The translations under genes were made by a program, and so were the position numbers. 32,000 bases of DNA from an uncultured Siphonobacter sp. (GTDB lineage Bacteria; Bacteroidota; Bacteroidia; Cytophagales; Spirosomataceae): NCBI GenBank assembly GCA_913775095.1, contig CAJYIW010000007.1, positions 1 through 32,000 on the forward strand, in the 5' to 3' direction. Positions within the stretch are counted from its first letter, which is position 1, and each line of letters opens with the position of its first letter. Positions 136-21,150 of this stretch are shown one piece after another. The notes under the pieces were generated by a model. It made no database searches and had not been told where the DNA came from. It worked only from the letters and a program-made list of their open reading frames with translations.

Positions 136-545
136 GAATTGAACATATAACCCCAAAAAGGTTCATTCTGGCTAGCCCCAGGTGATATCCCGGGGTAATG
201 GGTTACATTCGCTCTACCGTGGCTGGTGTCTCACCAGCCAGTTGTAAAGGAAGTGGTTGGTGAGGACACCAACCACGGTGGATGAGGAGGGGTTCAGCAT
301 GGGTAGCCCGGGATGATAATCCGGGTTAATAATCGGGGTTGCCCTCCGCTTGTGCTAGTGTCTTATCCGCTCTACCTTGGCTGGTGTCTCACCAGCCAGC
401 TGGAAAAGGAAGTGGTTGGTGTCGTCACCAACCACGGTGGATGAGGAAGGGTTCAGCATAGATAGCCCGGGATGACAATCCGGGGTAGGGGGTAATAATT
501 GATGAACCTGGGTTTTCCCGCCATGCCTGGTGTCTTCACCAGCCG
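136..545 (+). repeat. Tandem array A of the ~160-bp multi-hairpin unit (A1 136-290, A2 291-449, A3 450-545 degenerate/truncated)
   Basis: Shared blocks with array B: TAGCCC(C)GG..., GGCTGGTGTCTCACCAGCC, GTGGTTGGTGnnnnCACCAACCAC, CGG(T/C)GG. Confidence 0.95.
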
Positions 546-803
546 TTATGATAAGGCCATGAAGCACAGTGGACGAGTAAACAAAACCTGCAAAGGAAAT
601 CTCCCGGCCATGGCTGAGTACATTCACAGAAGAGAAATCCGTAGACATTACTGATAAATAGAAAAACGACCTTAGAAGCTATTACCTTTACAAAGTCTTT
701 AACGGCAAGAACAAATTACCCCATTTTTGGAGTTGAGCTTGGGTAAGCCTTCGTGAATCTTACGAATCACTGAAACAGGCCGTAGCAAACGCTAAACTCA
801 TCC

Positions 804-811
804 TATCTTTG
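804..811 (+). promoter_or_regulatory. Candidate Bacteroidota -7 promoter element for metH
   Basis: TATCTTTG matches TAnnTTTG, 73 nt upstream of the ATG. No clear -33 TTG. Confidence 0.35.
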
Positions 812-883: not shown

Positions 884-3800
884 ATGACGACGACTACGAT
901 TCAAAAACCCGACATCCGTACTCTTCTTAAACATCGTATTCTAATCCTTGATGGAGCCATGGGTACGATGATTCAGCGGTATAAGCTGGAAGAAGAAGAC
1001 TATCGGGGCTATCGCTTTGCCGACTGGCCCCATCCGCTCAAGGGTAACAACGATTTACTCGTGTTAACCCGTCCCGATATCATCAAAACCATTCACGGTG
1101 AATACTACGAAGCCGGGGCTGATATTGTAGAAACGAACTCTTTCTCAGGTACGTGGATTGCCATGGCCGATTACGGCATGGAGGAGTTAGTGTACGAACT
1201 GAATTATGAATCGGCCCGCATTGCCCGTGAGGTGGCGGATGAATATACGGCTCGTAATCCCCAAAAACCGCGTTACGTAGCCGGTTCCATGGGCCCTACT
1301 AACCGGACAGCCAGCCTTTCGCCGGACGTGAATAACCCCGGCTACCGGGCCATCACGTTCGATCAGCTCGTTGGTGCGTATTACGAACAGACGAAGGCTC
1401 TGGTAGAAGGCGGCAGCGATATTCTGTTGGTCGAAACCATTTTCGATACCCTGAATGCCAAAGCAGCTCTTTTCGCGATTGATACCTATTATCAGGATGT
1501 AACCAGCGGCAAACTTCCCTGGCCGGAGCATATTCCCCAGGCGGAGAAGCTTGAAGTGCCCATCATGGTCTCGGGAACGATTACCGATGCGTCGGGCCGG
1601 ACGCTTTCGGGCCAGACGACTGAGGCATTCCTGACCTCGGTTTCGCATTTGCCCTTACTTTCCGTTGGGTTAAACTGTGCCCTGGGAGCTGATTTGATGC
1701 GTCCTTATGTGCAGACCCTGGCGGATAAATCGCCCTTCTTTACCTCGGCTCACCCCAACGCAGGTCTGCCGAATGAAATGGGTGAATACGACGAAACGCC
1801 CGAACAAATGGGCGAAACCATCAACGGATTCCTGCAAGATGGGTTGATTAACATCATTGGGGGCTGTTGTGGAACAACGCCGGGTCATATTCGTCGCATC
1901 GCTGAAATTGCGGAAAAACATCAGCCCCGAACGCTTCCTGAAGAGGAGCCCGTGCTGAAACTTTCCGGACTGGAACCCATCGAAGTCACCAAAGAGAAAG
2001 TCCTGTTCCTGAACATTGGTGAACGCTGTAACGTAACGGGATCGAAGAAATTTGCCCGGCTGATTCGGGAAAATAAATACGATGAAGCCCTGGTCGTAGC
2101 CCGGGAGCAGGTGGAGAGCGGAGCTCAGGTCATTGATGTAAATATGGATGAAGGGATGATTGACGGTGCCGCCGCCATGACGACCTTCATGAACCTGATT
2201 GCCTCGGAGCCTGACATTTCGAAAGTCCCTATTATGATTGACTCTTCCAAGTGGGAGGTCATCGAAGCGGGCCTGAAGTGCGTGCAGGGCAAGGCCATTG
2301 TGAACTCGATTTCGCTGAAAGAAGGCGAAGAGAAATTCAGGGAATACGCCCGAACGGTTAAACGATACGGAGCTGCTGCCGTGGTGATGGCTTTTGACGA
2401 AAACGGTCAGGCTGATAACTACGAACGCCGGATTCAGATTTGTGAACGAGCGTACCGGATTCTGGTGGATGAAGTGGGTTTTGCTCCGCAGGATATCATT
2501 TTTGATCCCAACATTCTGACCGTTGCGACGGGTATTGACGAACACAATAATTACGCCGTAGACTTTATTAACGCCACTCGCTGGATCAAGGAAAACCTCC
2601 CCCACGCGAAAGTTTCGGGCGGAGTGTCCAACGTGTCGTTCAGTTTCCGGGGTAACGAACCCGTTCGGGAAGCCATTCACTCGGTCTTTCTCTATTATGC
2701 CATCAAAGCGGGGATGGACATGGGAATCGTGAACGCCGGTCAGCTGACGATTTACGATGAAATTCCCAAAGACTTTCTGGAACTGGTAGAAGACGTATTA
2801 CTGAACCGTCGTCCCGATTCTACCGAACGCCTGGTCGCATTTGCCGAAACGGTAAAATCGAAAGGCAAAACCGATACCGGCCCGGATTATTCCTGGCGGC
2901 AGTTACCCGTCAAAGAACGCCTATCGCACGCCCTGGTAAAAGGTATTGCGGACTTCATCGATGAAGACGTAGAAGAATGCCGTCAGGGTTTTGAGCGTCC
3001 CATTGAAGTCATTGAAGGCCCCCTGATGGACGGTATGAACATCGTCGGCGACTTGTTCGGCGAAGGTAAAATGTTCCTGCCTCAGGTAGTAAAATCGGCC
3101 CGGGTTATGAAGAAAGCCGTAGCTTACCTGCAACCTTTTATTGAAGCCAGTAAGGAAGCGGGTTCAACAGCCGGGCGTATTTTGCTGGCCACCGTGAAAG
3201 GAGACGTGCACGACATCGGTAAGAACATCGTGGGCGTAGTGCTGGGTTGTAATAACTATGAAATCGTCGATTTAGGCGTGATGGTCCCCACGGATAAAAT
3301 CCTTGAAGCGGCTAAAACGCATAACGTGGATATCATCGGATTATCCGGCCTGATTACTCCCAGTCTGGATGAAATGGTAGGCGTGGCGAAGGAAATGGAG
3401 CGTCAGGGCATGACCATGCCTCTGCTCATTGGAGGTGCAACCACGTCCCGGATTCACACGGCGGTGAAAATTGACCCTCAGTATTCCGGTCCGGTTATTC
3501 ACGTGCTGGATGCCTCGCGTTCGGTTCCGGTGGCCGGTCGGTTAACACAGAACAAGCAAACCTTAACGGAAATACATAGCGAAATCAAGCAACAGTACGC
3601 CAAGCTTCGGGAAGATCACGCCAAGCGTAAATCGGACAAAAACTTTGTGACGATTGAGGCCGCTCGACTGAATAAGGTAAAAATCGACTGGGGTAATTTC
3701 AAGGCCTATAAACCCAGCTTCCTGGGAACCAGGGTGTTTGAGGATTACTCGCTGGCGGAAATTGCGAAATACATCGACTGGACCCCCTTCTTCCAGACCT

Positions 3801-4879: not shown

Positions 4880-6316
4880 ATGCTTTTCAATAGCTATAGT
4901 TTTGTAATACTGGTATTCATTACCTTTATTCTGTATTACCTGCCTACCCGCCGGGTGCAAAATACATCCTGGCAAATTATTGTATTAATACTGGCCAGTC
5001 TGTTTTTTTACGGCTATCATCAGCCTGAGTTACTGGTTTTGCTGCTGGCTTCAGTGGCGGTTAATATTGCGGCCAGTTACCTCATTATTCATGGAAAGCA
5101 CGGATTCGAAAAGCTGGCTGCCTTTGGGGGAGTGACGCTGAACCTGAGTATCTTATTGTTTTTTAAATACAGTCCCTTAGTTGCCCGAACTTTTCTTTTG
5201 CCTGATCTGGATGCCGGTTCTTTTTTAATGAATTTGCCCTTACCTATCGGGATTTCTTTCTTTACCTTTCAGGGGATAAGCCTGATTGTCGATACGTACA
5301 GAAACCTGAATAACGAAGCCTACCGTGAACTTATTCCGGCTTCGCTAGCCGAGCATAGCAAACGGGTGTTGTTCTTTAAAGCTTTTTTTCCACAGCTTGT
5401 TTCCGGACCTATTGTCAAGGCCTATTACTTTCTTCCGCAAATCACTTACAAAGCTTTCAGAGCGATTAACTGGTCGTATTGTTTCAGAAATTTAACGCTG
5501 GGTTATTTTTTTAAAATGGTAATCGCGGATAACCTAAAAGACGTTACCTCTACCATTACATTTCCCTATTTTGAAGCCGAATCAACGCTTACGTTACTGG
5601 TCGTTCTGTTTGGGTATTCGATGCAGATATTTGCCGATTTTGCCGGGTATTCGCTGATTGCTTTAGGGTTCGCCGCCTTATTCGGATACCAGTTTCCCAT
5701 TAACTTCAATTTTCCTTACATCAGTACTTCGTTTTCGGAATTCTGGCGGCGTTGGCACATTTCTCTGTCGAGTTTTTTAAGAGAATACCTGTATATCCCC
5801 CTGGGAGGCAACCGGAAGGGAGCGTTTCGTACCAACGCTAACCTCCTGTTAACCATGGTGCTGGGAGGTCTCTGGCACGGAGCAGCCTGGAGTTATGCCA
5901 TTTGGGGACTTGTGCACGGACTGGCTCTGGTCCTGGAAAGAATGGCGGGATGGAATACGCATACCCGCTCGCACTGGCTCGTACAATGCCTGAAAGGAGT
6001 CTTTGTTTTTACCTTCGTTACCTTTGCCTGGCTGCTCTTTAAGCTACCTGATTTTGGTCACGTACTTGCCTTCGGTAAAGCGTTACTTCACAACTACAAT
6101 CGCCCCCTGAATACGCTTCCCGTTACGCTTACTGTATTGTTTTCTATTCCTGTCCTTGCGTATCACGCCTGGTATCTGGCAGGCTCGGTCATTCCTTCGC
6201 ACGAAGTTCTGAAGATTCGGTTATTGAAAACAGAGCCTTATGTATTGGGAATTATGCTGTTTATGATTGTTACTAATAGTGGTTCCAGTACTGACTTTAT
6301 TTATTTCCAATTCTAA
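4880..6316 (+). CDS. MBOAT-family membrane O-acyltransferase (AlgI/DltB/PatA-like)
   Basis: 478-aa polytopic ORF with the MBOAT signature around the conserved His (FWRRWHISLSSFLREYLYIPLGGNRKG, GGLWHGAAW). Confidence 0.9.
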   Translation: MLFNSYSFVILVFITFILYYLPTRRVQNTSWQIIVLILASLFFYGYHQPELLVLLLASVAVNIAASYLIIHGKHGFEKLAAFGGVTLNLSILLFFKYSPLVARTFLLPDLDAGSFLMNLPLPIGISFFTFQGISLIVDTYRNLNNEAYRELIPASLAEHSKRVLFFKAFFPQLVSGPIVKAYYFLPQITYKAFRAINWSYCFRNLTLGYFFKMVIADNLKDVTSTITFPYFEAESTLTLLVVLFGYSMQIFADFAGYSLIALGFAALFGYQFPINFNFPYISTSFSEFWRRWHISLSSFLREYLYIPLGGNRKGAFRTNANLLLTMVLGGLWHGAAWSYAIWGLVHGLALVLERMAGWNTHTRSHWLVQCLKGVFVFTFVTFAWLLFKLPDFGHVLAFGKALLHNYNRPLNTLPVTLTVLFSIPVLAYHAWYLAGSVIPSHEVLKIRLLKTEPYVLGIMLFMIVTNSGSSTDFIYFQF

Positions 6317-6320
6317 GCGG

Positions 6321-7187
6321 ATGATCAGAAAATCTTTACTCACGGCTTTTATCCTGCTCGTTTTATATTGGGCTTTTATACTTATTAATGCTGATCGTAT
6401 TACCCGTACGGGACAGAATCAGTACGCTCGTAATCTGGTAAGTGCTGAAGAATATTTATACGAAAATGGTCAGAAAGCCCATACGTTAATTTTGGGCTCG
6501 TCCATGAGTAGCCGTCTCGTTATGGATTCCTTACCTAAAGGATTTTATAACCTGAGTATGTCGGGTTTAAGCGTGCATGACGGCTTGCAATTGCTGGAAA
6601 AGGCAAAGCAGAAACCCCGGGTGGTAATGATTGAAATGAATATAGTGCTAAGGGAGGCAAACCAGAGTTTTGATGAAGACGTTTTACATCCCATTTTATA
6701 TCATGTTCGTGAGTACATCCCACTGATTCGGAAAAAGTATCAGCCGCTGGGGGTTTTGAAAGCTCTGTATCGGGATCGGATGTCGGTTAGTCAGGATTAT
6801 ACCTTATTTACGCTGCCTAAAGAAGTGTATGAAAGTGAAGTTAAACGTTTAATCAACGAATTTTCCTCAGCAGAACAGATTCCTAAAATTAAACCGAGAT
6901 TTCTGGCTTTAAAACAGGCGGTACAACGCTTACGGGCCTCGGGTGTGCAGGTGATATTTTTCGAAATGCCCTTTCACCAGGCCGCAACGCAGTTGAAAAT
7001 TCCCCGTCTGATTCGGTCCAATTTCTCCCTTTTGTTTCCTTCCCGGGAATATACCTACGTCAATAGGCCATCGGAGGTCTATCAGACTACGGATGGGGTT
7101 CATCTGGCAGGAGTAGAAGCCCGGCGGTATACCTGTTATCTGAGAAACGAGTTGAGGAAGAAAAAGCCTGAACTTTGCATGGAGTGA
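6321..7187 (+). CDS. Membrane-anchored SGNH/DltD-like protein, probable acyl-transfer partner of the MBOAT
   Basis: ATG at 6321 lies 5 nt after the MBOAT stop; the track start at 6267 overlaps the MBOAT gene. N-terminal TM helix (LLTAFILLVLYWAFILI). SGNH block I-like LILGSSMSS and block V-like TTDGVHL (DxxH) near the C-terminus. Confidence 0.6.
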   Translation: MIRKSLLTAFILLVLYWAFILINADRITRTGQNQYARNLVSAEEYLYENGQKAHTLILGSSMSSRLVMDSLPKGFYNLSMSGLSVHDGLQLLEKAKQKPRVVMIEMNIVLREANQSFDEDVLHPILYHVREYIPLIRKKYQPLGVLKALYRDRMSVSQDYTLFTLPKEVYESEVKRLINEFSSAEQIPKIKPRFLALKQAVQRLRASGVQVIFFEMPFHQAATQLKIPRLIRSNFSLLFPSREYTYVNRPSEVYQTTDGVHLAGVEARRYTCYLRNELRKKKPELCME

Positions 7188-8580: not shown

Positions 8581-9477
8581 ATGATACGTTATTTTTTAGT
8601 CGCTGGTTTACTGTTTTTCAGCCTGTTCCGTACAACTTCGGCACAGCAGAAAATTGTAGTTTTTCAATCGGATTTCGGGTTGAAAGACGGAGCCGTTTCT
8701 GCCATGAAAGGAGTAGCTATAGGCGTTTCTACGGAGCTGAAATTATTCGATTTGACGCACGAAATTCCCGCCTATCACATTTGGGAAGCCGCGTATCGGC
8801 TGGAGCAAACGGTACCGTACTGGCCCCGGGGAACGGTGTTCGTGTCCGTGGTAGATCCGGGCGTGGGAACTGAACGGAAGTCGGTAGTACTGAAAACCAA
8901 CGCCGGGCATTACATCGTAACGCCGGACAACGGAACCCTGACATTACTGGCTGAATCGGAAGGCATTGAGGAAATTCGAGAGATCAACGAAGCCATCAAT
9001 CGCCGGAAGGATTCGGGGAAGTCGTACACTTTCCACGGTCGTGATGTATACGCCTATACCGCCGCCCGACTAGCGGCCGGAACCATCACTTTCGAAGAAG
9101 TGGGAGGGGTGTTACCCCGGCAGGTCGTAACGATTCCTTACCAGAAAGCCCGTAAACAGAGTTCGGTGCTGGAAGGTACTATTTCCATTCTGGATGTTCA
9201 GTACGGAAACGTCTGGACCAACATTCCGTCCGGATTATTTGAGGAATTACATGCGAAAAGAGGGCAGCTCTTAACGGTTCGCATTTATCAGAATCAGCAA
9301 AAGAAATACGAAGGAAAAGTGCCTTACGTTCAGACGTTTGGAGATGTAGCGGAAGGAACTCCTCTGTTGTATTTAAATAGCCTGTTGCAGGTTTCGCTCG
9401 CCTTGAACCAGGGTAACTTCGCCGAAAAATTTAAGATTGAAAGCGGAAACGAATGGAAGATTGAAATCAGTAGATAG
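8581..9477 (+). CDS. SAM hydroxide adenosyltransferase family protein (DUF62, fluorinase/chlorinase superfamily) with N-terminal signal peptide
   Basis: DUF62 hallmarks: FQSDFGLKDGAVSAMKGV, VVDPGVGTERK, TPDNGTLT, FHGRDVYAY (Asp/Arg/His catalytic residues present). Preceded by MIRYFLVAGLLFFSLFRTTSAQQ. Confidence 0.85.
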   Translation: MIRYFLVAGLLFFSLFRTTSAQQKIVVFQSDFGLKDGAVSAMKGVAIGVSTELKLFDLTHEIPAYHIWEAAYRLEQTVPYWPRGTVFVSVVDPGVGTERKSVVLKTNAGHYIVTPDNGTLTLLAESEGIEEIREINEAINRRKDSGKSYTFHGRDVYAYTAARLAAGTITFEEVGGVLPRQVVTIPYQKARKQSSVLEGTISILDVQYGNVWTNIPSGLFEELHAKRGQLLTVRIYQNQQKKYEGKVPYVQTFGDVAEGTPLLYLNSLLQVSLALNQGNFAEKFKIESGNEWKIEISR

Positions 9478-9516
9478 TTTGAATGTTTGAATGTTTGAAT
9501 GTTTGAATGTTTGAAT
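9477..9516 (+). repeat. Octanucleotide microsatellite (GTTTGAAT) x5 starting at the last base of the stop codon of the DUF62 gene
   Basis: Direct reading. An inverted TTTCAAAC lies at 9553-9560, so the region can fold between the convergent genes. Confidence 0.97.
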
Positions 9517-9574: not shown

Positions 9575-10672
9575 CTATTCTTCGCTGTAAATGGGTGCTT
9601 TCCGATTCCGGAGCTGCCCGCCTTCACGGTGCGAAAAGACAGTCCTGATTTCTGCCAGAATGGATAAGTCGATTTCCTCGGGCGTGGCTGCTCCGGTATC
9701 AAGTCCGGCGGGGCTGTAGGTTCGCTGAAACTGTTCCGGCGAAAGCGTAGTTCCTTCTTCATCCAGTCGCTGAATCATCTTCTCAAAACGCTTTCTGGGG
9801 CCCAGTAATCCGATGTAAGGAACCTGCGTAGAAGTTACGTAACGCTGGTAATTTTGAAAATCCGTTTCCAGATCATGGGCCATCAGCACCACCGCCGTAA
9901 AATCATCGGGTTCAATCTGAGTATCTTTCGGTACCACGGCATCGGCCCAATTGAACAATGACTTATTAATTTTCTGAGGATTGCAGAAGACGGTGCTTAG
10001 CCAGCCTAATTCCTTCGCCTGCCGAACCAGCGGGAAGATGTCATAATTACCGCCATGAATGAACAAATGAATGGGCGGCGGAATAATTTCCAGTAACAGA
10101 GTAATGCTTCCAAATTCTCCCGAAAGCGTTTGCAAAGTCGATTTTTCGTTGGTTAAGCAAGTATGGATGCAATCAATTACTTCCGCTCTCGCTACTGGAA
10201 ATTCGAAACCTTTCGGTGATTCAAAACGGTGAACGGAACCCTGAGGTAACTCTTCCAGTAAACTTTCGGTTACGGTGATGACTACAGAAGGCTGACGGCG
10301 GGAAATCAGCGGCTGTAACTGCAAAACGGCATTATGAGCATCATTAGGGTCTAGCGGACTGAGCAAAACGTCAATAATCCCATTACAACCGAGCCCAACC
10401 CCAATCTGATAGGGGTCATCATCAGTAGTATCATACGTAACAATAGAAGCCTTACCCGTTGACATCGCCAGCCGGGCTCGTTTCAGAGCATCGCCTTCCA
10501 GACATCCGCCGGAGATGCCTCCAATCCACTGACCGTCTTCCGTAACCAGCATTCGTGCTCCGACCCGGCGATAGGAGGAGCCTTCTACCCGTACGACGGT
10601 AGCCAGTGCGGCCCGCGTGTTCGAAAAATCAATCGTCAGGTAATGTTCGAGTATAGACTTTATTTCTTTCAT
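9575..10672 (-). CDS. XdhC/CoxF-family molybdenum-cofactor insertion/sulfuration chaperone
   Basis: 365-aa ORF. N-terminal XdhC_CoxI-type motif (ALATVVRVEGSSYRRVGARMLV...GGISGGCLE) plus a C-terminal Rossmann-like XdhC_C region. Confidence 0.85.
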   Translation of the reverse strand: MKEIKSILEHYLTIDFSNTRAALATVVRVEGSSYRRVGARMLVTEDGQWIGGISGGCLEGDALKRARLAMSTGKASIVTYDTTDDDPYQIGVGLGCNGIIDVLLSPLDPNDAHNAVLQLQPLISRRQPSVVITVTESLLEELPQGSVHRFESPKGFEFPVARAEVIDCIHTCLTNEKSTLQTLSGEFGSITLLLEIIPPPIHLFIHGGNYDIFPLVRQAKELGWLSTVFCNPQKINKSLFNWADAVVPKDTQIEPDDFTAVVLMAHDLETDFQNYQRYVTSTQVPYIGLLGPRKRFEKMIQRLDEEGTTLSPEQFQRTYSPAGLDTGAATPEEIDLSILAEIRTVFSHREGGQLRNRKAPIYSEE

Positions 10673-10722
10673 TTTACTTGTTTTCAGTCTTCTGTTTTAA
10701 GCGGCTGCGGCTGCGGTTTTGA

Positions 10723-10813
10723 GTTCTCAGTTCTCAGTTCTCAGTTCTCAGTTCTCAGTTCTCAGTTCTCAGTTCTCAGTTCTCAGTTCTCAGTTCTCAG
10801 TTCTCAGTTCTCA
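10723..10813 (+). repeat. Perfect heptanucleotide microsatellite (GTTCTCA) x13
   Basis: Direct reading: 13 perfect units followed by GTTGGAAAG. Lies 50 bp upstream of the xdhC-family start codon on the opposite strand. Confidence 0.99.
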
Positions 10814-10853
10814 GTTGGAAAGTAAAAACCCATAAAGGTAGGGAAGACGTTTG

Positions 10854-11345
10854 GAACTGAACCTAAGAACCCCAGCGGGGTTCAATGTGGGTAGCCCCGG
10901 ATGCTAATCCGGGGTGACAGCCGGGGTAATAATTGGGGTTCACATTTACTCTGCCCTGGCTGGTGTCTCACCAGCCAGTTGTAAGGAAGTGGTTGGTGAG
11001 GACACCAACCACGGCGGGGAACTGAACCTAAGAACCCCAGCGGGTTCAATGTGGGTAGCCCCGGATGCTAATCCGGGGTGACAGCCGGGGTAATAATTGG
11101 GGTTCACATTTGCTCTGCCCTGGCTGGTGTCTCACCAGCCAGTTGTTAAGGAAGTGGTTGGTGAGGACACCAACCACGGCGGGGCAATGTTTGAAACTGA
11201 ACGCAAGAACCCCGGCGGGGTTCAATCTGCGTAGCCCCGGGTGATGACCCGGGGTAATAATCGGGGTTCACATTTGCTCTGCCCTGGCTGGTGTCTCACC
11301 AGCCAGTTGTAAGGAAGTGGTTGGTGGGGACACCAACCACGGCGG
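10854..11345 (+). repeat. Tandem array B of the ~165-bp multi-hairpin unit (B1 10854-11019, B2 11020-11184, B3 11185-11345)
   Basis: Three near-identical direct copies. Each has GAACCCC-nnn-GGGGTTC, an 8-bp CCCCGGnT stem, GGCTGGTG-TCT-CACCAGCC, and GTGGTTGGTG-nnnn-CACCAACCAC. Confidence 0.97.
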
Positions 11346-11405
11346 AGCTCAGGATAAACATCCGGCTTCGTCTCTGATTGTAAACCGAAAAGGGTCAACA
11401 GAAAA

Positions 11406-13439
11406 CTAACGTATTCTTACTTTCACGCCGCCAAAAAAGGCCCGGTTTGTCGCGGGTTCAAAGTATCGCCCACCCGCGGCGTTGATTTGCACGTTCGCAA
11501 AATAGGTCTGGTTCAGCAGGTTATTAATTCCACCGAAAGGCTCCAGCGACCAGTTGTTCCACTTGATCTGCCAGCCGAAGCGTAAATTCAGCAGACTAAA
11601 GGCTTCAGTTTTTACCTGATTGGCGTCGTCAGCATAAAACGTGCCATTTCTGCGAAACTGAATAATGCCATAAAACCCTTTTGGACGGAAATAACGCAGT
11701 TCGCCATAACCAAAGTGGGGAGGAATCCCCGGTAACTGGTTTTTGTCAAAAGTCCCGGAGGTCGTGGTATAATTCAGGTAGGTAAAGTCAGAATAAGTAT
11801 AATTCGCATAGGCCGTTAAGCCTTCCACGAGCTGAGCGGTTATGCCCAGTTCAACGCCCCGACGGCGGGAGTTACCCGCATTTCTGTAAAACGTACGTCC
11901 CGGAAATTCAGTAAGCTGATACGGTACAATCTCTCCCCGGACGTTGACCTGAAAGACCGCCAGATCAACTTTTACTTTAGTAAAGGTCGCTTTGGTGCCG
12001 ACTTCAAAATTCTGAGCCCGCATCGGCCCCAATTCCGGATTGAAGCCACCAAGGTTGCTCGGATTGGTGCCCAGTTCGGTCAGAGCAGGAGTTTCAAAGC
12101 TGGTGGAAAAATTGGCATAAACGCTGCGTTCGGGCTGGTATTCCCAGTTGAATCCGGCCGTTGGACTAAACCGATGATAGTTCCGGGTTCCCGACTGATC
12201 GCCATCACTCAAAAACTGATCATCCACGTTCAAACGAATGGCATCGTAACGCGTGCCGATCGTTAACAACGTGTTTTTCAGGAAGCCAAATTCCTGCAAC
12301 GCATACGCTCCGATGGTTCGGAAGGTTTCCACCTGCTCGAGCGATAAAGGGCCCTGCTGACCGTCGAGGTTGTTGTATCGCTTACGGTTATCCTGTTGAT
12401 TTTCAATATCAACGCCGGTTTTTAATCGATAGGAAACCGAACCCAGCTGATCGGTAAACTGATAGCTAACACCGCCGCCAATGTAGTTGCGGAGGAATTG
12501 TACATTCCCGCCCGCCTGAAAAGCCAGGCGATTTTCAAAGTCGCGATTGGTCCAGAAGGTTCGGGCCTGGAACTGGTGTTTTTTACCAATGGTGTGATCG
12601 TAAATAGCGGCTATGCGTTGCTGCGTAGCTCCCGAAAAAGCCTGGAACTGCACATTTTGGGGACGAGCCATGCGACGGTTTTCTTCCACTTGCTGGAGGG
12701 TCAATCCGCCGGGATCTTCGGCCGTATTTTTTGATAAATTATACAAAATGGTTAGCTTATTTGAAGCGGTAAATTCATGCTGAAATTTCAGGTTCAGTAA
12801 CCAGTTATTCATGGAGGCATACGTCCGGTATCCATCCTGAAGGTTACGACTGGCATTGAGTAACAGGCTCGAACGTTTCCATTTCTGTCCCACTTTCAGT
12901 TGATACCGCTGAAACCCGTAACTTCCGGCCACGGCCTGGGCTTCGGCAAAGTTGTATTCGGGCGTTTCGGTGGTGTAGGATAAAATGCCCCCCGAAGCGT
13001 TTCCGTACAGGGCCGACGAGGCTCCCCGGATCACTTCCAGTTGTCCCAGACTTCCCACATCGAAATTATTCACCTTGGCCTGACCATCCGGCGTGGATTC
13101 AGGAATACCGTCGAGCAATACTTTTAAACCCCGGATGCCAAAAGAAGAACGGGCTCCGAAACCACGGATCGAGATGCGAAGATCCTGAGCAAAGTTGTCA
13201 GGATTTTGCGAAAACACCCCAGGAATGGCACCCATGGCATCAAAAAGGGAAAGCTGAGGCTGCCCAATCTGAAGGCGGGACTGATTAAGTACCGAAACTG
13301 AAAAAGGACTGCGGTTTTCGGCGAGCTGTAAACGGGTAGACTGAATCTCAACGGGTTTCAGGTCGCGGGTTCGGAGACTGTCCTGAGCCTGAGCAACCAG
13401 GGGTATACCAATAACAAGTAGAACGATCCGGAGATACAT
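11406..13439 (-). CDS. TonB-dependent outer-membrane receptor (siderophore/metal type, not SusC type)
   Basis: 677 aa. Signal peptide MYLRIVLLVIGIPLVAQAQ, plug motifs (IRGFGARSSFGIRGLKVLLDGIPESTPDG, EVIRGASSALYGN), and a long beta-barrel region. No SusD-like neighbour. Confidence 0.9.
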   Translation of the reverse strand: MYLRIVLLVIGIPLVAQAQDSLRTRDLKPVEIQSTRLQLAENRSPFSVSVLNQSRLQIGQPQLSLFDAMGAIPGVFSQNPDNFAQDLRISIRGFGARSSFGIRGLKVLLDGIPESTPDGQAKVNNFDVGSLGQLEVIRGASSALYGNASGGILSYTTETPEYNFAEAQAVAGSYGFQRYQLKVGQKWKRSSLLLNASRNLQDGYRTYASMNNWLLNLKFQHEFTASNKLTILYNLSKNTAEDPGGLTLQQVEENRRMARPQNVQFQAFSGATQQRIAAIYDHTIGKKHQFQARTFWTNRDFENRLAFQAGGNVQFLRNYIGGGVSYQFTDQLGSVSYRLKTGVDIENQQDNRKRYNNLDGQQGPLSLEQVETFRTIGAYALQEFGFLKNTLLTIGTRYDAIRLNVDDQFLSDGDQSGTRNYHRFSPTAGFNWEYQPERSVYANFSTSFETPALTELGTNPSNLGGFNPELGPMRAQNFEVGTKATFTKVKVDLAVFQVNVRGEIVPYQLTEFPGRTFYRNAGNSRRRGVELGITAQLVEGLTAYANYTYSDFTYLNYTTTSGTFDKNQLPGIPPHFGYGELRYFRPKGFYGIIQFRRNGTFYADDANQVKTEAFSLLNLRFGWQIKWNNWSLEPFGGINNLLNQTYFANVQINAAGGRYFEPATNRAFFGGVKVRIR

Positions 13440-14633: not shown

Positions 14634-14662
14634 AAGGCCGGCAATTTTGCCGGCCTTGTTTA
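14634..14662 (+). terminator. Rho-independent terminator after the AraC gene
   Basis: Perfect 11-bp arms AAGGCCGGCAA / TTGCCGGCCTT followed by GTTTAT. Confidence 0.75.
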
Positions 14663-14673
14663 TGAGTCACTAC

Positions 14674-14914
14674 CCGCTTTTCCGCTGGCAGCCTCTGTTA
14701 AGAGATTAAAAGTCATTGCAATTCAGAGTACAACTAACTCATGCTACCAGCGAAAAAACTGGTAGCGGAAGGTTAACATTGTTGCCTTAAAACCTGTTTT
14801 CTGAGCCGCTGCCAGCTTTTCCGCTGGCAGCCTTACTTGAAGGATGGGTATACTGAAATTCAGATTAGTACTAACTCATGTTACCAGCGAAAAAGCTGGT
14901 AGCGGAGGGTTCAC
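14674..14914 (+). repeat. Two direct copies (14674-14777 and 14812-14914) of a ~100-nt two-hairpin element upstream of aldB
   Basis: Conserved blocks GCTTTTCCGCTGGCAGCC, AATTCAGA, TAACTCATG, TACCAGCGAAAAA, CTGGTAGCGGA, separated by a non-conserved linker. Hairpins are GCTGCCAGC/GCTGGCAGC and GCTACCAG/CTGGTAGC. Confidence 0.9.
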
Positions 14915-16564: not shown

Positions 16565-16648
16565 GTTTGGAGTTTAGAGTTCTGAGTTGAGAGTTGGTAA
16601 CTAGCCCATTAACTCAAAACCCTAAACCACAAACTCAAAACCTAAACT
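16565..16648 (+). repeat. Degenerate heptamer run (GTTTGGA GTTTAGA GTTCTGA GTTGAGA GTTGGTA) followed by an AC-rich imperfect complement
   Basis: Direct reading of the aldB-DUF779 spacer. The GT-rich left arm and AC-rich right arm (CTCAAAACCCTAAACCACAAACTCAAAACCTAAAC) can form a long imperfect hairpin. Confidence 0.75.
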
Positions 16649-20953: not shown

Positions 20954-20979
20954 AAACCTTCCCTGGACGAGGAAGGTTT
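20954..20979 (-). terminator. Compact hairpin downstream of catalase and of the long GTTTGA hairpin
   Basis: AAACCTTCC-CTGGACGA-GGAAGGTTT, followed on the minus strand by TTATATG. Confidence 0.4.
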
Positions 20980-21150
20980 GAAGTTTGATGAAGTTTGAGG
21001 GGGTTTGATTCAGATTTGATAAGGTTTGAGATCGTTTGACTTGGTTAGAAACGGTTTGAGAGGTTACATGGACCTGGCCTTACTCTACTGGATGGCAAGT
21101 AACCTTTCAAACCTGAATCAAACTTCAAACGATCTCAAACTCAATCAGAC
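20975..21150. repeat. GTTTGA/TCAAAC repeat region forming a long hairpin (perfect 16-bp arms 21024-21039 / 21125-21140; inner 15-bp arms 21053-21067 / 21099-21113)
   Basis: GTTTGA-like hexamers recur about every 10 bp on the left side. TCAAAC occurs four times on the right side. GTTTGAGATCGTTTGA is the exact reverse complement of TCAAACGATCTCAAAC. Confidence 0.9.

Follow-up and report, generated by a model that had tools for sequence, protein, structure and literature searches.

The DNA considered here is a 32,000-nt stretch of a contig from an uncultured Siphonobacter sp. (CAJYIW010000007.1, positions 1 to 32,000; the window), and our subject is a repetitive non-coding module that fills the spacer between two of its genes. 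The spacer (10673-11405, 733 bp) lies between an open reading frame (ORF) of the XdhC family (9575-10672, minus strand) and a gene for a TonB-dependent receptor (11406-13439, minus strand), and the module within it is antisense to both flanking genes. A reading made from the sequence alone had described this spacer as an ordered structure of microsatellite, linker and three direct units, and that description was borne out. Tandem Repeats Finder located a heptamer tract at 10722-10816 (period 7, 13.6 copies, 100% matches, unit AGTTCTC = GTTCTCA) and a unit array at 10853-11347 (period 164, 3.0 copies, 88% matches). Read along the plus strand, the module begins with the perfect microsatellite (GTTCTCA)x13.6, whose minus strand is (GAACTGA)n, and passes into a conserved, A-rich linker of ~45 nt that we call the head (GGAAAGTAAAAACCCATAAAGGTAGGGAAGACGTTTGGAACTGAAC..., 10817-10866). 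Neither the microsatellite nor the head showed any structure when its folding was tested. Three 164-bp units follow. Unit B1 (10853-11017) contains hairpins H1 (10867-10883), H2 (10891-10915), H3 (10956-10978) and H4 (10989-11012) and ends in the tail GGCGG; B2 (11018-11192) contains H1 (11032-11047), H2 (11055-11079), H3 (11120-11142) and H4 (11154-11177) and is 99% identical to B1 across 105 nt; and B3 (11193-11347) contains H1 (11207-11223), H2 (11231-11255), H3 (11284-11306) and H4 (11317-11340) and has the right end ...CCACGGCGGAG.

A second module in the same order and orientation, also predicted from the sequence alone, is present at 1-560. Its microsatellite, (GTTGGTT)x14.1 (1-99), is perfect but differs in its heptamer and is truncated by the window edge. 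The aligned head occupies 99-148, and about three units, the last one degenerate, extend over 149-560 (H3 at 219-241 and 377-399, H4 at 253-276 and 412-435, and a partial pair at 518-556), all on the plus strand. The linkers of the two modules are 78% identical, and their H3-H4 parts are 94% identical. The coding potential of the first module is limited to short ORFs spanning the repeats. The head of L050, one of 58 fetched sequences (numbered L001 etc.) with which the window was compared, contains an indel that disrupts every frame.

The hairpins provide the first indication of what the module is. The sequence-only reading had counted four to five of them in each unit; the units are indeed hairpin-rich, with each carrying four. 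H1 is GAACCCCnnnGGGGTTC, H2 is GTAGCCCCGG..CCGGGG, H3 is CTGGCTGGTG-TCT-CACCAGCCAG, and H4 is GTGGTTGGTG-AGGA-CACCAACCAC followed by GGCGG. Folded as DNA, H1-H4 reach -5.7 to -11.9 kcal/mol (z -3.7 to -6.1), making them stable imperfect palindromes within the 20-40 nt expected of repetitive extragenic palindromic (REP) sequences. The exact H3 19-mer occurs 5 times in the window, where chance would give 0.01 copies. H3 (loop TCT) and H4 (loop AG(G)A) are inverse forms of a single archetype. When nine modules are aligned, their consensus fold has H3 paired with H4, and the pairing includes an outer stem with two compensatory GC-to-AU changes. In the same alignment, 94.7% of cells are paired in the consensus fold, compared with 31-49% when the partners are slid. 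H3 and H4 thus supply the two inverted REPs able to pair that characterize bacterial interspersed mosaic elements (BIMEs) and REP doublets forming hairpins (REPINs). Stem mismatches in the nine modules are balanced between G:U (9 cells) and A:C (10 cells), which indicates that neither strand is favoured and that DNA palindromes fit better than an RNA made from one strand. Matches to an H3-H4 profile were likewise found on both strands.

Comparison of the same spacer in related genomes reveals how the module came to be there. The XdhC protein of the window is 90% identical to an 'unclassified Siphonobacter' XdhC. Two further Siphonobacter assemblies encode XdhC proteins with 76% and 70% identity to it, and their syntenic loci are L053 and L055, respectively. 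L050 and L051 share 98% DNA identity with each other, and each is 80-86% identical to the window. In L055 and L053 the TonB receptor/xdhC spacer is 21 and 44 bp long, respectively, and contains no module. In L050 it is 314 bp long and holds three diverged heptads (GTTTTCA GTTTGGG GTTTTCA), the head and one unit; in L051 and L052 it is 382 bp long and resembles that of L050, but H3 and H4 are each duplicated. The 733 bp of the window accommodate 13.6 heptads, the head and three units, and the right flank of B3, GCTCAGGA..CATCCGGCTT, is similar to the empty site of L053. With one unit in L050 and three in the window, this locus displays the tandem reiteration with variable copy number that is a hallmark of BIMEs and REPINs. 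The second module, between a Mur-ligase gene and metH, behaves in the same way. Where the window has the tract (GTTGGTT)14+, L050 has (GTTTTCA)2(GTTTTGA)7 and L051 has (GTTGTCA)13, each leading into the same head, and L050 and L051, despite their 98% identity, differ here in unit number, heptamer unit and copy number. The corresponding spacer in L055 measures 227 bp and has no module, and the region upstream of metH (window ~640-883) is more conserved than the module itself. These spacer comparisons indicate that the module is a lineage-specific insertion that subsequently grew and changed fast, and not a conserved regulatory sequence. Moreover, the two paralogous modules of the window share 94% identity in the H3-H4 region, but orthologous modules only 72-73%. 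Paralogues that are more alike than orthologues point to concerted evolution, as in REP families.

The pieces of the module are also dispersed. In the Siphonobacter sequence examined, at least 13 separate loci carry modules or H3-H4 pairs, all outside called or Pfam-supported genes and next to unrelated neighbours. Siphonobacter sp. SORGH_AS_0500 has the complete architecture in L023, with (GTTTGGA)x13, head and H1-H4. A metagenome scan with the head pattern returned three further modules: L046, of Siphonobacter origin, with (GTTGTTT)4.5, head and H1 only; L047, truncated at the head by the contig end; and L048, with degenerate heptads, head and one unit. Two other sequences from that scan, L045 and L049, were chance matches and were discarded. 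The genes adjoining the metagenome modules are again unrelated (FixG-like, permease and RluA). Downstream of RluA, L046 has head and H1 at the 3' edge of the heptads, L056 (RluA 91% identical) has diverged heptads and their inverse complement with no head or H1, and L057 has a spacer of only 18 bp. The idea that the linker is a leader joined to its units in a dedicated module therefore stands in part. The order of heptads, head and hairpins recurs with constant polarity at six or more different loci, and NGTT precedes the head in all eight modules whose left junction is covered (L047 being cut at the head). On the other hand, the H3-H4 profile search recovered pairs with a head at ~5 independent loci and without one at ~8, and heptads also occur without a head. 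The sequence-only reading had itself held that copies outside the microsatellite-linker context, with no conservation in related species, would mean a simple selfish repeat, and by that standard the headless pairs and headless heptads point to one. Orientation relative to neighbouring genes is not fixed.

The ends of some of the hairpins resemble those of a particular group of known REPs. 'Double-foot' REPs, with 5' GT[AG]G and 3' C[TC]AC, have been described for subclass 2.4 of the REP-associated tyrosine transposases (RAYTs). Cyanobacteria and Bacteroidetes are reported to be rich in this subclass, along with subclass 1.2 (Quentin et al. 2018, PMC6006769). H4 reads GTGG-TTGGTG-AGGA-CACCAA-CCAC in all five window copies and so has the 5' GTGG and 3' CCAC feet of this subclass, and the H2 foot is GTAG in all three units of the 10722-11347 module, where G-C pairs open a G-C-rich stem base. 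In SORGH_AS_0500 the H3/H4 pair lies in ~176-bp tandem units in which the position of H2 is taken by a different hairpin, GTAGAGACGCGA..TCGCGTCT. This hairpin, found in the H2 slot in sister genomes, differs very little from the REP listed for a Flavobacterium branchiophilum subclass-2.4 RAYT and is also close to Emticicia and Runella REPs (Table S1 of PMC6006769).

Taken as a whole, we consider it probable that the spacer is a BIME-like mosaic of REP-type DNA palindromes, one member of a family of dispersed non-coding repeats in Siphonobacter (Cytophagales). The best reading of the module is as a Bacteroidota counterpart of the enterobacterial BIME/REPIN elements and not as a new RNA gene. 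Its basic dispersed piece is the inverted, REPIN-like pair of H3 and the double-foot H4, with H2, H1 and the ~45-nt A-rich head added 5' of the pair, and immediately 5' of the head there is always a tract of GTTNNNA heptads. A selfish element of REP/BIME type was one of three options raised from the sequence alone, next to a structured non-coding RNA array and a protein-binding or recombination site, and it is the one now favoured by the GT[AG]G feet, the inverted pair, the strain-variable copy number, the empty spacers of congeners and the similarity of paralogues. Like the BIMEs and REPINs of Enterobacteria and Pseudomonas, the Siphonobacter elements are extragenic clusters of palindromes in alternating orientation, with conserved linkers, homogeneity within a genome, tandem reiteration and copy number that varies among strains. 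They differ in occurring in Bacteroidota, in having a ~164-bp unit of four hairpins and three sequence types, and in the presence of one conserved, unstructured ~45-nt head and a constantly adjacent heptamer tract in each array. Comparison with two other kinds of element is also useful. The BOX elements of Streptococcus pneumoniae are modular non-coding repeats with boxA and boxC ends and no microsatellite. Like them, the module combines a single distinct end piece with internal hairpin-forming modules that are repeated in tandem a variable number of times, but its sequence is unrelated, it lacks the boxA/boxC ends, it carries a microsatellite and its host belongs to another phylum. Palindrome-associated transposable elements (PATEs) are non-autonomous IS200/IS605 derivatives without terminal inverted repeats (TIRs) or target-site duplications (TSDs). 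The module resembles them in lacking TIRs and TSDs, in having dissimilar ends with a subterminal hairpin each and in abutting a short conserved flank (NGTT) on its left; it is unlike them in that no TnpA has been identified, that the left hairpin lies ~50 nt from the junction (farther than in IS608) and that its internal tandem units are atypical.

Several observations weigh against placing the module among the REPs. The H3 foot is CTGG, and the H2 foot of copies elsewhere is often ATAG or CTAG, and also ATGG, in contrast to the feet of subclass 2.4 REPs. No gene for a RAYT or other Y1 transposase was found in the window or the 58 fetched loci by regular-expression searches of six-frame translations for HUH...Y motifs. 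The ORFs between REPs in L037 and L051 were checked and are not transposases. REPs are normally species-specific, but the exact H3 19-mer, GGCTGGTGTCTCACCAGCC, is common to Cytophagales, Chitinophagales and Sphingobacteriales (Pedobacter) with differing flanks (L004-L044). When one genome per species was scanned for this 19-mer, 41 loci were obtained, ~35 of them in Bacteroidota (SORGH_AS_0500, several Chitinophagaceae and several Pedobacter); the six matches in other phyla compare with four or so expected by chance. A span of three orders suggests horizontal spread or a conserved binding protein. The head is conserved to the same degree as the hairpins, with ~26 invariant positions in the first 50 columns across nine modules and a mean pairwise identity of 73%. 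It has no obvious counterpart in classical BIME linkers, and its conservation hints at a function of its own. Finally, most modules begin directly 3' of the stop codon of a same-strand gene, a placement that would also fit a selected role at gene boundaries.

If the module is a BIME-like mosaic, its history at this locus may be pictured in four steps. As comparison with the congeners shows, the element entered a TonB-receptor/xdhC operon spacer of 21-44 bp in the ancestor of the clade of the window, L050 and L051. The 164-bp unit then grew in place from one copy to three and the heptad to a perfect 13.6-copy microsatellite, presumably through replication slippage or unequal recombination between direct repeats. 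The uniformity of H3/H4 within the genome could have been kept up by gene conversion or repeated turnover. Dispersal to many loci was most likely catalysed in trans by a putative RAYT-type (TnpA_REP, subclass 2.4-like) HUH tyrosine transposase, which would act on the hairpins in single-stranded DNA and insert beside the short target NGTT. Any effect on the host is probably secondary: the ~12 strong hairpins would attenuate or stabilise the TonB-receptor/xdhC transcript, and a hypermutable tract is placed 50 nt upstream of xdhC.

The heptamer tracts deserve attention in their own right. Siphonobacter spacers are rich in GTTNNNA-type heptads and related 8- and 10-mers, and these often start directly 3' of a stop codon and are followed by their own inverse complement. 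The common unit reads AAACTSA on the opposite strand, and that of the module reads (GAACTGA)n. Intergenic heptamer arrays are familiar from Cyanobacteria as short tandemly repeated repetitive (STRR) sequences. TAACTGA repeats upstream of start codons have been described in Beggiatoaceae, Cyanobacteria and five Bacteroidetes, with the mechanism not known (MacGregor 2015, PMC4679880). GAACTGA, on the minus strand of the module tract, differs from TAACTGA by one base, as does the common AAACTSA unit, and the relation is one of sequence resemblance only. The module tract is a heptamer simple sequence repeat in being perfect, intergenic and strain-variable, with a TAACTGA-related unit. It shares with STRR and TAACTGA arrays the perfect intergenic tandem heptamers, variation among strains in 7-nt steps and relatives with shorter, repeat-free spacers. 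Unlike those arrays, it is joined at fixed polarity to a head and a REP array, and its unit varies by locus and strain. At 9477-9516 of the window, in a spacer between convergent genes, (GTTTGAAT)x5 immediately follows the stop codon of the gene for a SAM hydroxide adenosyltransferase; the same site has (GATTGAAT)6(GTTTGAAT)11 in L050 and (GATTGAAT)4 in L051, and in L053 the genes abut with no spacer. Block structures such as this one in L050 and (GTTTTCA)2(GTTTTGA)7 fit ordinary mutate-and-expand slippage. A telomerase-like templating of heptads from the head was considered and dropped because the units vary by locus, the head is constant and slippage accounts for the blocks.

Other heptad sites combine direct and inverse motifs. 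From the aldehyde dehydrogenase stop to the DUF779 start (window 16565-16641), the heptads GTTTGGA GTTTAGA GTTCTGA GTTGAGA GTTGGTA are followed by their inverse complement, and this arrangement has stayed in place in L050, L051 and also L053, although its sequence has drifted; its fold is weak (z -1.4). The ferrochelatase/catalase spacer (20976-21147) has GTTTGA motifs ~10 nt apart and then inverse TCAAAC motifs, which jointly form a 186-nt hairpin (-31 kcal/mol, z -5.1), and a similar array of GTTTGA-type decamers occupies the AraC-aldehyde dehydrogenase spacer of L053. In the window, the latter spacer contains a second, unrelated BIME-like array at 14654-14914 (2 x 139 bp, with the inverted hairpin pair GCTGCCAGCTTTTCCGCTGGCAGC and GCTACCAGCGAAAAAACTGGTAGC), which has ~3 units in L051 and ~5 in L050.

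The REPs and RAYTs of Bacteroidetes and the heptamer arrays are each known separately, and it is the constant order of heptads, head and REP array, together with the head itself, that appears to be undescribed. One could go further and propose that tract, head and REP/REPIN array form a single undescribed mobile unit of Cytophagales, with HUH-type (RAYT 2.4-like) machinery that targets or seeds GTTNNNA heptads and a head that serves as its recognition site. Heptamer arrays occur in Cyanobacteria and Bacteroidetes, the same two phyla in which RAYT subclasses 2.4 and 1.2 are said to abound. We regard this extension as unlikely.

Among the explanations that compete with a BIME-like mosaic, a selected element at gene boundaries survives best, and we judge it unlikely. 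The module would then be a 3'-end signal of the upstream gene, be it a terminator, an insulator or an mRNA-stabilising element, and would owe its presence to selection instead of selfish spread. Heptads directly after same-strand stop codons (L046, L048, locus A of L050/L051, and window 9477 and 16565) are what this explanation anticipates, as is the head conserved across loci. The hairpin of heptads and inverse heptads between aldehyde dehydrogenase and DUF779, whose position is kept genus-wide including L053, speaks for it as well. So does a short GC-rich hairpin with a T-run, AGCGGCTGCGGCTGCGGTTTTGA, on the plus strand at the 5' edge of the heptamer tract (10697-10721), a feature not listed in the sequence-only reading. 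A scan for sigma-70 promoters and terminators yielded nothing but this terminator-like piece. L023, L048 and L050 contain homologues of it (AGCGGCCGCCGCTGCGGTTTGGA and similar), and it is absent from the same locus in L051. Four findings argue in the opposite direction: the module at the TonB receptor/xdhC locus is antisense to both flanking genes, the genes of congeners function with 21-44-bp spacers that have no module, copy number and unit sequence vary between strains that are 98% identical, and paralogues are more alike than orthologues.

The sequence-only reading had also raised a structured non-coding RNA array, and a product or cis-regulatory RNA from one strand with the linker as its leader or promoter would account for the very stable fold of the array. 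Its z is about -11 on both strands, and the plus strand folds better than the minus strand (-285 vs -245 kcal/mol). Some compensatory changes exist, and the minus strand of the head carries TACCTTTA (10840-10833), which resembles TAnnTTTG, the -7 box of Bacteroidetes promoters. We nevertheless find this option quite improbable and not supported by the comparisons. The search against Rfam that had been proposed as a check gave no match for the units; across the whole window nothing reached the gathering score, only miRNA-type noise appeared at E<=10, and region 1-900 had no match at E<=0.1. The balance of G:U and A:C in the stems and the occurrence of the H3-H4 profile on both strands do not suit a one-stranded RNA, nor does an orientation to neighbouring genes that is not fixed. 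Congeners do without the module, unit number varies among close strains, and the -33 element is not conserved.

A phase-variable contingency switch, in which slippage of the tract 50 nt upstream of the xdhC start toggles xdhC and the hairpins are incidental, is highly improbable. The tract is perfect and hypervariable between strains, and the (GAACTGA)n on the sense strand of xdhC differs by a single base from the TAACTGA units that precede start codons in other bacteria (PMC4679880). However, most other such tracts lie at gene 3' ends or antisense to genes, maturation factors of the XdhC family are atypical as contingency genes, and L050 and L051 have only three diverged heptads at this site. 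Least probable of all, and already largely refuted at the TonB receptor/xdhC locus, is a miniature inverted-repeat transposable element (MITE) or insertion sequence remnant moved by a DDE transposase, for which the same H4-like/H3 pair inside a 110-bp element of the Chitinophagaceae bacterium SJ21 is set against Siphonobacter modules without TIRs or TSDs, with dissimilar ends, with unit number that varies through tandem duplication and with no transposase nearby. The SJ21 element is a MITE with 21-bp TIRs (GGGTGCATTCCAAATTGTCGC) and 8-9-bp TSDs, and its interior holds GTGGGCAGTGAAGACACTGCCCAC, a hairpin resembling H4, together with an exact copy of the H3 hairpin; copies are found in L005 (7782-7891), L013, L020, L027, L034 and L040.

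The sequence-only reading was correct that the module has no TIRs, no transposase and no resemblance to a clustered regularly interspaced short palindromic repeat (CRISPR) array. Inverted matching of the module's two ends reaches a score of 9 at best, below the 9.8 that shuffled sequences average, direct repeats of 6 nt or longer are absent from its flanks, the window has no transposase, and contiguous 164-bp copies without unique spacers rule out a CRISPR array. No match to the module was found by blastn in plasmid and phage collections, a scan of viral contigs gave no copy of the H3 19-mer, and nothing relevant emerged when the full text of the literature was searched for the hairpin sequences or for repeats of Siphonobacter. 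Resemblances to integron attC sites, IHF sites and CsrA sites were dropped since the required motifs are not conserved across copies.

Some features of the neighbouring spacers complete the description. The sequence TATCTTTG (window 804-811), a perfect match to the Bacteroidetes -7 promoter box TAnnTTTG, sits ~75 nt upstream of metH and is kept in L050/L051. Its placement and conservation suggest that the metH promoter is probably downstream of the second module and independent of it. Between metH and DUF389, the window has an MBOAT gene and a 306-aa ORF (4880-7187); L050 and L051 lack both and have a ~1 kb REP-rich spacer with GTAGAGAC-type hairpins and H3/H4 pairs. The FdhD-DUF779 spacer of L051 (~3290-3420) contains a ~107-bp inverted H1/H2 doublet, tail-to-tail with CTAC...ATAG inside, that lies between two H2 hairpins of identical sequence, CCCCGGATTTTATCCGGGG. 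The doublet is missing in L050, and in the window this spacer is only 118 bp long. L051 may have gained the doublet, or L050 may have lost it by deletion between the direct H2 copies.

The biology of REPs and BIMEs has been established almost entirely in Proteobacteria. The Siphonobacter module adds a clear example from Bacteroidota in which the states are resolved, from empty site to one unit, duplicated hairpins and three units, and it joins two hypervariable kinds of non-coding DNA, heptamer tracts and REP arrays, in a constant order. Elements of this type have practical consequences for genome sequences. They inflate operon spacers from ~30 bp to >700 bp, and gene callers and ORF lists place spurious small ORFs across the repeats (L051 18931-19089; window 355-648). 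Contigs L001-L003 and L047 terminate inside heptamer tracts or at the head, which indicates that the elements break short-read assemblies. If the coupling of heptads and REPs is mechanistic, it would give the heptamer arrays, on record for decades and still unexplained, an origin that can be tested. Should the module prove to be a single mobile unit, the STRR and TAACTGA arrays of Cyanobacteria, Beggiatoaceae and Bacteroidota would be explained as side products of REP/RAYT activity or as landing pads for it.

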